Shown one piece after another: positions 44,525 through 50,946 of a DNA stretch of 64,000 nt; within the stretch, counting starts at the first letter, position 1; every line of letters starts with the position of its first letter. The notes beneath the pieces are model-generated. The model did not search any database. It saw nothing but the letters and a program-made list of their open reading frames with translations, and was not told the origin of the DNA. Made by a program: the position numbers and the translations under genes. Origin of the DNA: Gemmatimonadota bacterium (lineage in GTDB: Bacteria > Gemmatimonadota > Gemmatimonadetes > Gemmatimonadales > GWC2-71-9); assembly GCA_031375485.1 (NCBI GenBank), contig JANMHX010000025.1, positions 35,360 to 99,359 of the forward strand, in the 5' to 3' direction.

Positions 44525-45487
44525 TCAGCCCCGCCGCGGCTCCGGCGGACCCGCGACCGATTCGAAATACTCAGCCATTCGTTTCCGAACCGACTCATCA
44601 GGCAATCGCCCCATGGCGGCCCCCATGTTGTCGCGCAGGTTGGCCGGCTTACTGGTACTCGGGATCGCCGCGGTCACCGCCGGATGGCCGATGACGAACT
44701 TGAGGAAGAATTGCGCCCAACTGGCGACGTCGATGTCCTTGGCCCACTCCGGCAAGGGCTTCCCGGCCACCCGGGGGAACAGCGCCGCGCGCCCGAACGG
44801 CAGCGCCACCAACACCCCGATCTTCCGCTGCAAGGCCAGCGGCAAGATCACCTCCTCGACATTGCGATTGGCGATCGAGTAATCGATCTCGATGAAGTCG
44901 AGCGGCACGTTCCGCATGATCGACTCAAGCTCGCCGTACTGACTGTCGCTCGTCGTGGTCACCCCCAGGTATCGAATCCGCCCCTGCTGCTTGAGTTCCT
45001 TCAGCACGCCGAGTTGGGTCGGCACGTCACCGAGGTTGTGGACCTGAATGAGATCGATCTTGGATTTCTTGATCCGGGCAAACGAGGTCTCGATTTGGGC
45101 CAGGGCCGCCGCCCGGTCGGCCGATCCGCCGCGGCTTGCCACGTTGACCTTGGTGGCCCAGAACACTTGGTTGGCGACACCGAGCTCCTGGACGATGCCC
45201 CCGGCGACCTCCTCGGAGGCGCCGTAACTCGGTGCGGTGTCGAACACCGTGCCACCGAGATCGACCATCGTCTTCATCACCTCCCGAATCGCCGAGACGT
45301 CCTCGCTCCGGGCCACTTGAGAAAACGTGGCCGAGCTGCCGAGGCCGACCACGGGAATCGCTTCGCCGGAGGACGGGATCGGACGGGTAATCAGCTTCTT
45401 GCCTTGGGCTACCAACACCCGGAGGTCAACGGCGAGGGCGGCCGCAACCCCAGCGGTCAAGCCAATCCACTCACGACGACTTGGCAT
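44525..45487 (-). CDS. Aldo/keto reductase with Tat signal
   Basis: ATG at 45487 gives MPSRREWIGLTAGVAAALA, which carries a twin-arginine motif. The AKR body contains FDTAPSYG and IDLIQVHN. ATG 45499 is an alternative start. Confidence 0.85.
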   Translation of the reverse strand: MPSRREWIGLTAGVAAALAVDLRVLVAQGKKLITRPIPSSGEAIPVVGLGSSATFSQVARSEDVSAIREVMKTMVDLGGTVFDTAPSYGASEEVAGGIVQELGVANQVFWATKVNVASRGGSADRAAALAQIETSFARIKKSKIDLIQVHNLGDVPTQLGVLKELKQQGRIRYLGVTTTSDSQYGELESIMRNVPLDFIEIDYSIANRNVEEVILPLALQRKIGVLVALPFGRAALFPRVAGKPLPEWAKDIDVASWAQFFLKFVIGHPAVTAAIPSTSKPANLRDNMGAAMGRLPDESVRKRMAEYFESVAGPPEPRRG

Positions 45488-45559
45488 CAGGATCTCCATC
45501 AGAGGTCTGAAAAGGTACCGGAATCCTGGAGGCCACGGCAACACGGCACATCGGGTCCG

Positions 45560-46672
45560 TCAGACCCACGAGGGCAGGCGTCCGAGTCCCGTCGCCCCGA
45601 GGAATCGGGACATCCGCTCGAGTTCCGCTTGAATCGCCGTTCGTAAGTCCGGCTCGATCATTCGCTCGGTCACAAAACCGATGTCGGCATCGAGGACGCC
45701 CTCGCGCACCGAGAGGTTACCCCACCCGATGACCTCGTCCCGCCACAAGAGCGGCAACGCGTAGTATCCGAGTTTTCGTTTCGGGGCCGGGGTATAGGCC
45801 TCGAACCGGTAGGCCCAGCCCCAGAACAGCTCAAACCGCCGGCGGTCCCACACCACCGGATCGAACGGGGCGAGGAACCGGGCCTCGTCGAACCGGGCAT
45901 CGGGTTTTCTCGGCACTGACTCGTCCGCGGGCCAAAACCAATCGATGCCGTCGATCCTGGCCCGGGCCAGCCGAGCCTTGGCCCGCAGGAGGGCCCCCTT
46001 CCGCTCGGCTCCGAGTTGCGGGGCGCCGAACCGGAGCCGGTTCACCAGCCCACTCAGACTCGCCGCCGGCAACGGAGCGTACTGCTTGACGACCACATCC
46101 ACCAACGCGTCCATTGCCCGTCGGCGGGACTCGGCGTCGGTCGGCCGGACCGGATGCGTATGGGCGGCATAGATCCGGATCCCGCTCTCCCGCCGCACCA
46201 CCCGAAGCAACCCCTGATAGTGCAGGTTGTTGAGGAGATGCGACGTGGCATTCGAAGAGCCGCCCCAATGATTGGTGACCCGGCCGTGACCGAAATGTTC
46301 GTCGACCACGCGGGGATGCACCGGTCCATGTTCCTGGACGAAGTCCAACAACGCGCGGCTTCGTTTCTTGGTGCTGACCCGCCAGGCTGCTGGAGCTACC
46401 CGCGGGTGCATCAGGGCCTGCGAGGCGCGAGGCAGGAAGCCGTAGTTGACGAAAAAATCTTCTTCGATATCGAGTTTGGCGTAGCGGCGCTCGAGATCGC
46501 CGGCGGTATAACCGGCTACCCGGTGGCGGAGCGTCAGGTCTTGAGCCCGGGCCGGCGCCCGAATCGGATCGGCTTGCACGAAGCCAAGTTTCGTAATGGC
46601 CCGGCCGAGTGTGGTGGGCGGAAACAACGAGCGGGCCACGGCGTAACGCCGAAGCCGGGCGAGCGCTGTCAC
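45560..46672 (-). CDS. YcaQ-like winged-helix DNA glycosylase (HTH_42 family)
   Basis: The N-terminus LGFVQADPIRAPARAQDLTLRHR carries a Q-x-D motif like that of E. coli YcaQ. The C-terminus YYALPLLW is typical. The GTG start overlaps the upstream stop (GTGA). Confidence 0.8.
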   Translation of the reverse strand: MTALARLRRYAVARSLFPPTTLGRAITKLGFVQADPIRAPARAQDLTLRHRVAGYTAGDLERRYAKLDIEEDFFVNYGFLPRASQALMHPRVAPAAWRVSTKKRSRALLDFVQEHGPVHPRVVDEHFGHGRVTNHWGGSSNATSHLLNNLHYQGLLRVVRRESGIRIYAAHTHPVRPTDAESRRRAMDALVDVVVKQYAPLPAASLSGLVNRLRFGAPQLGAERKGALLRAKARLARARIDGIDWFWPADESVPRKPDARFDEARFLAPFDPVVWDRRRFELFWGWAYRFEAYTPAPKRKLGYYALPLLWRDEVIGWGNLSVREGVLDADIGFVTERMIEPDLRTAIQAELERMSRFLGATGLGRLPSWV

Positions 46673-48968: not shown

Positions 48969-49738
48969 GCCTGCTCCTCGAGCCGTTGGTGGAGCCGCTG
49001 CATGCCTTTGATCCAGCGATCGCGGTCGGCCGCCTTCCGGGCGATGTATTCACGGACTTGGGGATGGGGCAGGATCAAGAAGGTCTCGGCCTCCATGCCC
49101 CGGACGACGGCCTCGGCCACGGCCTCGGGCTCGATGGCCTCGGGCGACAAGAGCGCCGTGATCCGGTCGTCGCTGGAGGTGAGCATCGGGGTCTTGACGC
49201 CTAACGGGCAGACACAGGAGACCCGGACGCCCAGGGCCCCGTAGGTGACCGCCAGCCACTCGGCAAACGCCACGGCGGCATGTTTGGTGACCGCATACGG
49301 CGCGGATCCGAGTTGGGTCAACAGGCCGGCGGCCGAGGCCACGTTGACGAGGTATCCCTGGCCGCGGCGGATCATGTCGGGCACCAACACCCGGGCGGCC
49401 CAGACGTGAGCCATCACGTTGATATCCATGATCCGGCGCCATTCGGCATCGGGGGTCTCGGGGCCGCCGCCGATGGCAATGCCGGCGTTGGAGACGAACA
49501 CGTCGATCGGCCCGACCCGTTGCTCGACGTGCGCCACCAAGGCGATCAGATCGCGTTCCTGGCTGACGTCGGTCCGGAAGGCCACGCCATTGATGGCCGC
49601 CGCCACCCGTTCGGCACCCGCGAGGTCCACGTCGGTCACGACCACCCGGGCCCCCTCGGCGGCAAACCGGTGGCAGAGGGCCCGGCCGATGCCGCTGGCG
49701 CCGCCGGTGACCACCGCCACCCGGCCGTCGAGTTTCAT
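48965..49738 (-). CDS. SDR family oxidoreductase
   Basis: ATG at 49738 gives [18 protein letters not shown] and forms an ATGA overlap with the ACAD stop. The catalytic motif is YAVTK. Confidence 0.85.
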
Positions 49739-50946
49739 GGCTTCGGGGTCCACTTCCGGAGTTCGAGCTTGGCCACCGACTCGCGGTGCACCTCATCAGG
49801 GCCATCGGCCAAGCGGAGGGTCCGGGACTGAGCCCAGGCATAGGCCAGGAAGGTGTCCTGGCTGACGCCCATGCCGCCGTGGGCCTGGATCGCCCGGTCG
49901 AGCACTTGCAAGGCCACGTTAGGCGCCACCACCTTGATCATCGCGATTTCGGCGCGAGCCGCCTTGTTGCCGACGGTGTCCATCATGTGGGCCGCCTGGA
50001 GCGTCAGGAGACGGGCCTGGTCGATCTCGATCCGGGAGTCGGCAATGTCGCGGCGGATGGTGCCCTGCTCGGCGATCCGTTTGCCGAAGGCGGTTCGCTG
50101 GTGAACCCGGCGGCACATCAACTCGAGGGCCCGCTCCGCCACCCCGATCAGCCGCATGCAATGGTGAATCCGGCCGGGCCCGAGCCGACCTTGGGCAATT
50201 TCGAACCCCCGGCCTTCGCCCAAGAGGAGATTCGAGGCCGGGACCCGGACATTGGTAAAGGACACTTCGCCGTGGCCGTGGGGGGCGTCGTCGTAGCCGA
50301 ACACCGTGAGCATCCGTTCGATCTTGACGCCGGGGGCGTCGGTCGGCACCAAGATCATCGACTGCTGGAGATGGGTGGCGGCGTCGGGGTTGGAGCGGCC
50401 CATCACAACTAAAATCTTGCAGCGGGGATCGCCGGCGCCCGACGTCCACCACTTCCGCCCGTTGATGACGTAGTGATCGCCGTCCTTGGTGATGGAGGCC
50501 CGGATGTTGGTGGCGTCGGAACTCGCCACCTCGGGTTCGGTCATGGCGAACGCGCTCCGGATCTCGCCATTGAGCAGGGGGCCGAGCCAGCGGCGCTGGT
50601 GCTCTTCGGTGCCGTAGCGTTCGAGGACTTCCATGTTGCCGGTGTCGGGCGCGGAGCAGTTGAAGGGCTCCGACCCGATCGGCGAGCGGCCCATCGCCTC
50701 GCAGAGCGAGGCGTAGTCGAGGTTGGTAAGGCCGGCCCCCCGTTCGGAATGGGGGAGGAACAGGTTCCAGAGCCCGGCGGCGCGGGCTTTGGTCTTGAGG
50801 TCCTCGACCACGGCCGTGGGGTGCCAGCGGCGGGCGGCGACTTCGGCGTGAAAGATGGCTTCAGCGGGATAGACATGCTGATCCATGAAGGCGATCAGCC
50901 GGCCGCGGAGGTCAGCGGCCCGGGGCGAGAGTTCGAAGGCGGTCAT
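49735..50946 (-). CDS. Acyl-CoA dehydrogenase family protein, ACAD10/ACAD11/FadE2 type
   Basis: The motifs [54 protein letters not shown] and [11 protein letters not shown] closely match my recollection of the ACAD10/11 dehydrogenase domain. Confidence 0.9.

Follow-up and report, generated by a model that had tools for sequence, protein, structure and literature searches.

The locus described here lies on the minus strand of a 64,000-nucleotide stretch of genomic DNA from a Gemmatimonadota bacterium (GenBank assembly GCA_031375485.1, contig JANMHX010000025.1, positions 35,360 to 99,359 of the forward strand). The whole stretch is called the window below, and its positions are counted from its first letter. 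Six genes follow one another there in the same direction, and encode an acyl-CoA dehydrogenase (ACAD), a short-chain dehydrogenase/reductase (SDR), a kinase of the aminoglycoside phosphotransferase (APH) fold, a flavin mononucleotide (FMN)-dependent enzyme of the FMN_dh family, an AlkZ-like DNA glycosylase, and an aldo/keto reductase (AKR) (table 1). An initial annotation, made from the sequence alone, had described six minus-strand genes with four 4-bp overlaps and one 72-bp spacer, and all of these were found on reading the sequence. The peptide motifs that it quoted, including VQADPI, are present, and its six gene identities were confirmed by Pfam. It had further claimed an obligatory coupling of the first three genes to the other three, in one unit that detoxifies and catabolises reactive lipid electrophiles and repairs the DNA lesions that they cause. 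Our comparative data demonstrated that the coupling of the six genes is not general. We consider it likely that the locus consists of one pathway module and three functionally independent genes, packed together by a lineage-specific arrangement.

Distribution and packing of the six genes

The neighbourhoods of the homologous genes were investigated in two scans, each of which covers the 80 loci listed out of at least 80. The glycosylase scan covered species-representative genomes and extended up to 8 kb to either side of the gene. The kinase scan used metagenome loci, 51 of them with at least 1.3 kb downstream and 34 with at least 3 kb, and a homolog cut-off of E < 1e-8. Only one of the 80 genomes in the glycosylase scan, the Gemmatimonadota metagenome-assembled genome (MAG) L007, whose glycosylase is 79% identical to that of the window, carries the ACAD, SDR, kinase, FMN_dh, and AKR genes; within 8 kb of the glycosylase gene all five partners were missing from the remaining 79. 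The arrangement is missing from two other Gemmatimonadota, L008 (glycosylase 73% identical), where the neighbours are TetR, alpha/beta hydrolase, ECH, and PrpD genes, and L067 (62%), and in Comamonadaceae the glycosylase gene adjoins metK/ahcY. Homologs of the FMN_dh enzyme, the AlkZ-like protein, and the AKR were found in none of the 80 kinase-centred metagenome loci, many of which are on short contigs. For the FMN_dh and AKR genes, three or four loci each were sampled. FMN_dh orthologs of other lineages (61-66% identity) have as neighbours carbonic anhydrase and DinB genes, an esterase gene, or hypothetical genes and a ferritin gene, and AKR orthologs of other Gemmatimonadota (81%, 78%, and 70% identity) have unrelated neighbours. 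One of these loci, L172 (AKR 81% identical), is without the ACAD-SDR-kinase-FMN_dh-glycosylase block. When L172:5556-9954 was set against window positions 44525-52291, a DUF4440 homolog (70%) and a lipoprotein-like homolog (36%) were seen 2-3 kb from the AKR gene. The L172 comparison suggests that the five-gene block was inserted or lost by local rearrangement.

The full six-gene order was found only in L001 and L002, in which the surrounding genes are syntenic too, and in L007. In the clade with the arrangement, the FMN_dh, glycosylase, and AKR proteins are at least about 79% identical, and the shared arrangement is a matter of ordinary common ancestry within a narrow Gemmatimonadota clade. 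The claim of obligatory coupling did not survive these comparisons. The initial annotation had named an adjacency unique to this genome as an observation that would speak against it, and had asked for a survey of glycosylase neighbourhoods. In that survey the adjacency proved to be shared by one relative (L007) and by none of the other 79 genomes, so that it is nearly, but not strictly, private to this genome, extending only to the narrow clade.

The first five genes are chained by start/stop overlaps (ATGA at 49735-49738, GTGA at 48965-48968, ATGA at 47919-47922, and GTGA at 46669-46672). All six open reading frames (ORFs) have high third-position GC, in a window of about 66% GC whose nearest relatives are Gemmatimonadota MAGs. 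The start codons are supported by the homolog alignments, which begin at residues 1-10 of the query, by the positions of the twin-arginine motifs (residues 9-10 in the FMN enzyme and 4-5 in the AKR), which fit the called starts, and by the gene calls made independently for relatives and for a 100%-identical contig, which gave the same starts. A start of the FMN_dh gene at M64, which would abolish one overlap, was rejected, the N-terminal motif being kept family-wide. A 4-bp start/stop overlap is possible in 9 of the 26 same-strand neighbour pairs of the window (5 of 22 outside the cluster), and the relative L007 has 34 bp between its APH and FMN_dh genes where the window has an overlap. These observations indicate that the overlap chain is operon-like packing that is ordinary for this genome. 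The six-gene string is probably co-transcribed; tight 4-bp chaining does not, however, show that genes share a function.

No tie between the cluster and its flanking genes is evident. Upstream are a lipoprotein-like ORF and genes of the DUF4440 and DUF4153 families, and downstream, on the plus strand, are convergent LPG_synthase_TM and PAP2 genes. The upstream lipoprotein-like gene (220 aa, 50995-51657) was considered as a member of the unit and rejected; it is kept in L001 and was not detected in L007. The stop codons of the AKR gene (minus) and of the LPG_synthase_TM gene (plus) are 4 bases apart (window 44520-44525). No terminator-like hairpin was detected between these stop codons, and no promoter-like or terminator-like match in the spacer between the glycosylase and AKR genes. 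Over positions 44200-52400 promoter-like sites were absent and terminator-like sites were scarcer than in shuffles, and the scan is uninformative on transcript boundaries. A domain scan of the six genes and ten flanking genes revealed no regulator, transporter, or acyl-CoA synthetase. In NCBIfam none of the six proteins had an equivalog and the glycosylase had no match of any kind, and an exact protein look-up returned no record of the ACAD or the glycosylase and 100%-identical entries for the FMN_dh enzyme and the AKR.

Table 1. Genes, spacer, and sequence motifs of the six-gene string, with their positions in the window
Feature	Position	Strand	Remarks
ACAD gene	49735-50946	minus	403 aa; Pfam ACAD N, M, and C domains
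SDR gene	48965-49738	minus	257 aa counted from ATG; Pfam adh_short 2.6e-48
APH kinase gene	47919-48968	minus	349 aa; Pfam APH (PF01636) 1.1e-52
FMN_dh gene	46669-47922	minus	417 aa; Pfam FMN_dh (PF01070) 6.7e-117, residues 70-413
AlkZ-like glycosylase gene	45560-46672	minus	370 aa; Pfam AlkZ-like (PF06224) 4.8e-44
AKR gene	44525-45487	minus	320 aa; Pfam Aldo_ket_red (PF00248) 4.2e-34
Spacer, glycosylase to AKR	45488-45559	minus	72 bp, read from sequence
ACAD R254...H262-C-M-R265, ACAD10/11-specific Arg and HCMR	50152-50187	minus	stretch identical to ACAD11 in alignment
ACAD D381, predicted catalytic Asp	49804-49806	minus	ACAD11 D753 position; LADGPDEVH segment identical to ACAD11
Kinase catalytic loop, H214-N-D216-F-K-F-D-N221	48306-48329	minus	aligns with ACAD11 vhgdfkldn (D220, N225) and 9o56 ihydyklnn
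FMN enzyme twin-arginine motif, R9-R-Q-F-L-R-F15	47878-47898	minus	R9, R10, F12, L16, and S19 invariant (alignment A2)
FMN enzyme CxxCH in lid loop, C235-T-A-C238-H239	47206-47220	minus	C235, C238, and H239 invariant (alignment A2)
Glycosylase QxD catalytic motif, Q33-A-D35	46568-46576	minus	aligns with QID of 9zd6 and E. coli YcaQ
AKR N-terminal twin-arginine motif, SRREWIG	45461-45481	minus	conserved in family

The ACAD, SDR, and kinase

The best matches of the ACAD in the PDB are mouse and human ACAD11 and 4hr3 (E about 1e-141), and all other PDB ACADs are matched at 3e-41 or weaker. Since its E-values for ACAD11 are lower by about 100 orders of magnitude than those for other ACADs, the protein is assigned to the ACAD10/11 type; it is 58% identical to the ACAD domain of mouse ACAD11. 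The motif of the HCMR group has been defined on ACAD11 R626, H634, and R637 and adjoins FAD and the active site, and ACAD11 D753 is the catalytic Asp that replaces the usual Glu of ACADs (PMC12440821). R254 of the window ACAD aligns with mouse ACAD11 R626. The protein has the upstream Arg, HCMR, and catalytic Asp that mark the ACAD10/11/LvaC group and hence belongs to it, and it is predicted to eliminate phosphate from a 4-phosphoacyl-CoA.

The PDB matches of the kinase are 9o56 (3e-95), 3dxp (5e-52), and the kinase domain of ACAD11 (1e-51, 34% identity). Its catalytic loop aligns with those of ACAD11 and 9o56, and the roles of the loop residues have been described (PMC12440821, PMC13596139). 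The segments gREfki and gyvaRqv align with dREfki and gyckRqv of ACAD11, which hold R86 and R176, two proposed CoA contacts (PMC12440821), and the DWE metal motif is present (vlDWEm). The protein is thus classed as an APH-fold kinase of the ACAD10/11 type and is a predicted 4-hydroxyacyl-CoA 4-kinase. The PDB matches, the HCMR, and the catalytic residues bear out the placement of the ACAD and the kinase with ACAD10/11 and Lva proteins by the initial annotation.

Of the 80 metagenome loci, 54 have enough sequence upstream of the kinase gene, and in 32 of these the next gene upstream, on the same strand, is an ACAD gene; all 42 ACADs that adjoin kinases in these kinase-centred loci keep the HCMR and the Asp. 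The pair of kinase and HCMR-type ACAD is very widely conserved in environmental bacteria. A bacterial split pair, the kinase and ACAD of Burkholderia pseudomallei, replaced the ACAD10 domains in vitro on 4-hydroxyhexanoyl-CoA (PMC11342911).

The SDR is of the classical type, and NCBIfam and the PDB gave generic SDR matches only. The order ACAD-SDR-APH recurs in L089 and L097, and its SDR-APH part on the short contig L087. The position of the gene points to an LvaD-like role, in which the SDR would reduce a 4-oxoacyl-CoA to the 4-hydroxyacyl-CoA. The kinase would then phosphorylate the 4-OH of the 4-hydroxyacyl-CoA, and the HCMR-type ACAD would eliminate the phosphate to give a 2-enoyl-CoA, which would proceed to beta-oxidation.

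The HCMR-type ACADs beside ACAD10/11-type kinases were observed to form two subclades (loci L087-L166). Members of one have GRLGPGR...LADGPDEVH and are 63-76% identical to the window ACAD, and three of its four examples have an SDR adjoining the ACAD and kinase. Members of the other, commoner subclade have ERLGPGR...IYDGPDEVH, are 39-48% identical to the window ACAD, and usually lie directly against the kinase.

The FMN enzyme, glycosylase, and AKR

The PDB relatives of the FMN enzyme are lactate and glycolate oxidases. Its scores fall under every NCBIfam equivalog cut-off (LldD, lactate oxidase, MftD), with 214 against 550 for LldD. Alignment A2 shows no variation in the catalytic residues, SNHGGR (H313, R316) and K289. 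Enzymes of the FMN_dh family oxidise 2-hydroxy acids, not 4-hydroxy acids. The protein has an N-terminal extension of about 60 residues, and its signal is NRRQFLRFLAASPLL. Homologs were taken from the sets P0121-P0240 and P0361-P0510, the family proteins being about 400-440 aa long. The motif RRxFLRxLAASPLL was kept in 117 of 120 homologs (57-100% identity), and export by the twin-arginine translocation (Tat) system is a reasonable prediction from this conservation.

The lid loop of the FMN enzyme contains a CxxCH motif that was present in all 120 homologs, with variable x residues. When full-length representatives of 50%-identity clusters were sorted by these two features, the signal and CxxCH occurred together in 25, the signal alone in 15, and neither in 20. 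Another four have CxxCH and no signal detected by the regular expression, and two of these four do have the motif, as a KR variant in one case and with the RR beyond the scanned N-terminal window in the other. Among these representatives CxxCH thus seems to occur only in exported (signal-bearing) members, and this restriction raises the possibility of a c-type haem site. If haem c is bound, the FMN enzyme would be a single-chain periplasmic flavocytochrome, and it may be such a protein, acting on 2-hydroxy acids, and not an oxidase; alternatively, the CxxCH may form a disulfide or a metal site. In the AlphaFold2 (AF2) model the barrel is confident and the lid loop (residues 216-260) is of low confidence, and a nearly invariant Met253 lies downstream of the CxxCH in alignment A2. 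Our literature search found nothing relevant on an FMN_dh enzyme with a CxxCH or a Tat signal, and this large family of putative signal-bearing 2-hydroxy-acid dehydrogenases with an invariant CxxCH is apparently undescribed.

For the AKR, a 100%-identical gene call of 320 aa exists. Its signal is SRREWIGLTAGVAAALA, and the Tat-like motif SRREW[IL]xLTAGAGAALA was kept in 119 of 120 homologs (P0241-P0360), so that Tat export, predicted from the conserved motif, is reasonable here also. The Tat signals that had been proposed for the oxidase and the AKR are therefore features of both families, and both N-termini fit the Tat pattern of an S/T-R-R-x-F-L-K-like motif and then a hydrophobic stretch. 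Candidates for the AKR tetrad (Asp/Tyr/Lys/His) are FDTAPSY, ATK, and QVHN, as read by eye from the sequence. A periplasmic AKR would be without free NAD(P)H. The glucose-fructose oxidoreductase of Zymomonas retains a bound cofactor, and the AKR might do likewise. The AKR family comes mostly from Gemmatimonadota, and the window AKR contains no Cys.

The glycosylase is covered by PF06224 over its full length (residues 27-357 against 2-329 of the 329 profile positions). Its sole PDB relative is 9zd6, also when a profile search was used, and AlkZ was not recovered. The QID of 9zd6, at residues 56-58, matches the Thermobifida fusca AlkX described in PMC13303869. Identity to E. coli YcaQ is 29% (E 2e-26). 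All 19 homologs of alignment A1 have Q33, A34, and D35, and the motif is of the QxD type, whereas AlkZ-like proteins have QxQ or HxQ. The YcaQ-type QxD motif recognised by the initial annotation thus aligns with the catalytic QID of both references. The protein is a YcaQ/AlkX-like (YQL) homolog of the HTH_42 DNA glycosylases, and its activity is predicted from this relationship. Orthologs with 59-79% identity occur across Gemmatimonadota, Burkholderiales, Xanthomonadales, and Acidobacteriota. This glycosylase clade is unusually conserved, and more than 100 positions do not vary among 19 sequences (alignment A1; loci L007-L086). In L006, a gene for a Tag-type 3-methyladenine glycosylase (PF03352) lies two genes downstream of the YcaQ-like gene.

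The genomic surroundings of characterised YQL genes were also considered. E. coli ycaQ is situated within an unrelated lipopolysaccharide (LPS) operon (PMC7367128), and the locus, msbA-lpxK-ycaQ-ycaR-kdsB, has 4-bp overlaps at msbA/lpxK and ycaR/kdsB. The neighbourhoods of Streptomyces YQL genes contain genes without apparent functional connection (PMC9040887). The E. coli and Streptomyces contexts make the presence of a YQL gene in an unrelated operon a known pattern. We know of no YQL activity on enal-derived crosslinks. The characterised enzymes act on N7-alkylguanine lesions and on crosslinks formed by nitrogen mustards or azinomycin (PMC7367128, PMC9040887).

Alternative explanations and known systems

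In the explanation that we favour, the FMN enzyme, glycosylase, and AKR belong to widespread and conserved single-gene families that stand in unrelated contexts elsewhere. They would have been brought beside the ACAD-SDR-kinase module by rearrangement in one narrow lineage, and would share a transcript with it through genome packing and not through shared chemistry. The integrated unit of the initial annotation, in which the AKR and FMN oxidase would detoxify lipid-peroxidation aldehydes, the SDR, kinase, and ACAD would catabolise 4-hydroxy acids, and the glycosylase would repair crosslinks, can appeal to contiguous and overlapping genes, to a string that is conserved within the clade, to an ACAD and a kinase that are truly of the 4-hydroxyacyl-CoA type, and to a glycosylase with the catalytic QxD motif. 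It is nevertheless not supported, since the genes are adjacent in one narrow lineage only, their chemistry and compartments are unconnected, and the overlaps are default packing. The adjacency is missing in 79 of 80 glycosylase loci, in all 80 kinase loci, and in every context of FMN_dh and AKR orthologs that was examined, and ycaQ occurs elsewhere in unrelated operons. Moreover, the FMN_dh family and the PDB relatives of the window enzyme use 2-hydroxy and not 4-hydroxy acids, both redox enzymes are predicted to be periplasmic while the CoA pathway and the DNA are cytoplasmic, and the substrates of characterised YQL enzymes are the alkylated guanines and crosslinks named above. We therefore regard one unit of this kind as highly improbable. 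A functional tie without DNA repair would exist if the exported FMN dehydrogenase and AKR processed external hydroxy acids, keto acids, or aldehydes whose products feed the SDR, kinase, and ACAD, with the glycosylase as a passenger. The conserved twin-arginine motifs on both enzymes and their common string with the module in the clade are in keeping with this scenario; on the other hand, there is no co-localisation outside the clade, L172 has an 81% identical AKR without the module, the FMN enzyme, or the glycosylase, and FMN_dh and AKR genes are never adjacent in the other contexts examined. The cluster also contains neither a transporter nor an acyl-CoA synthetase, and the glycosylase gene separates the FMN_dh gene from the AKR gene. 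On balance, such a supply of the module from outside the cytoplasm is unlikely. The kinase, too, has been open to another reading, since a 2026 preprint reported prokaryotic homologs of the ACAD10 kinase with 1-O-alkylglycerol kinase activity (PMC13596139). The kinase of the window might then serve ether-lipid salvage as a 1-O-alkylglycerol kinase, the ACAD and SDR having another role. Its top PDB match, 9o56, is labelled 'Aminoglycoside phosphotransferase', and its numbering (HYDYK D214/K216, N219, DWE D234/E236) is such that it appears to be the Caldalkalibacillus thermarum ACAD10-kinase structure of that preprint. The window kinase keeps HxDxK and DWE, and the lipid genes PAP2 and LPG_synthase_TM are located just downstream, though on the opposite strand. 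However, an HCMR-type ACAD is encoded beside the kinase both in the window and in 32 of the 54 testable loci, and the only known chemistry of HCMR-type ACADs is phosphate elimination from 4-phosphoacyl-CoA (PMC12440821, PMC11342911). The Burkholderia kinase and ACAD did replace the ACAD10 domains on 4-hydroxyhexanoyl-CoA (PMC11342911), and the alkylglycerol and 4-hydroxyacyl-CoA activities need not exclude each other. A kinase dedicated to ether lipids is accordingly judged very unlikely. The kinase/HCMR-ACAD pair and the two ACAD subclades bear on the debate over 4-hydroxyacyl-CoA versus alkylglycerol kinase substrates.

Several points weigh against a module with three independent neighbours. 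Wherever the arrangement occurs in the clade, the genes keep their order, even at about 79-80% identity; L001 retains the four overlaps, and L007 seems to preserve three of the four junctions. The order and overlaps kept within the clade make co-expression likely, and a lineage-specific functional link within the clade is possible. Considering that 4-hydroxy acids are products of 4-hydroxyalkenal metabolism, the chemistry of the initial annotation is not far-fetched, and the occurrence of two exported redox enzymes in one string could be more than coincidence. The sampling was limited to 80 loci per scan, with short contigs and few FMN_dh and AKR contexts, and the kinase may have another substrate, given the report of alkylglycerol kinases (PMC13596139). 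In a young, clade-specific unit, the exported FMN enzyme and AKR would act on external reactive aldehydes or hydroxy acids, the module would burn the 4-hydroxy acids that result, and the co-expressed glycosylase would guard the DNA against the same electrophiles. To such a unit we assign a slim chance, and a single pathway module beside three independent genes is still the likely explanation.

Two of the three neighbours can be compared with known systems. The FMN enzyme shares with glycolate oxidase, lactate oxidase, and flavocytochrome b2 a full-length FMN_dh domain with the invariant SNHGGR and Lys, and differs from them in its twin-arginine extension and the CxxCH of its lid loop. The glycosylase shares a full-length PF06224 domain and an aligned QxD with E. 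coli YcaQ and with the AlkX proteins of T. fusca and A. baumannii (PMC7367128, PMC9040887, PMC13303869), and its gene, like E. coli ycaQ, is embedded in an operon of unrelated function. In contrast, its identity to E. coli YcaQ is low (29%), and it falls into its own highly conserved clade, distant also from T. fusca AlkX.

The module has closer counterparts. According to PMC6692424, which cites Rand et al. 2017, the kinase, ACAD, and SDR chemistry is established for the lva operon (lvaABCDE) of Pseudomonas putida, which has an APH-type kinase, a phosphate-removing ACAD, and an SDR that makes 4-hydroxyacyl-CoA; proteins of these three enzyme classes are encoded in the window also. The window string differs from lva in its gene order, has no room for an LvaB-like ORF of 12 kDa, and has neither an LvaE acyl-CoA synthetase nor an LvaR regulator in or next to it. 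LvaA shares only 29% identity with the ACAD10/11 kinases, to which other bacterial kinases are closer (PMC11342911). The window kinase looks like this closer bacterial type. The B. pseudomallei pair (Q63VL0 and its partner) is comparable by its description, being a stand-alone kinase and ACAD of the ACAD10/11 type, and differs from the window cluster, where the SDR gene lies between the kinase and ACAD genes. Mammalian ACAD10 and ACAD11 contain fused kinase and ACAD domains and act in 4-hydroxy-acid catabolism (PMC12440821, PMC11342911). The likeness of the window proteins to them is seen in the ACAD (58% identity, with identical R...HCMR and LADGPDEVH) and in the kinase (34% identity, with the Asp/Asn and CoA-contact Arg residues kept). 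Unlike the mammalian proteins, the kinase and ACAD of the window are separate polypeptides, with an SDR gene between their genes and no HAD domain. Therefore, the core ACAD/kinase module is one that has already been described, and the window provides a further example of it from Gemmatimonadota.

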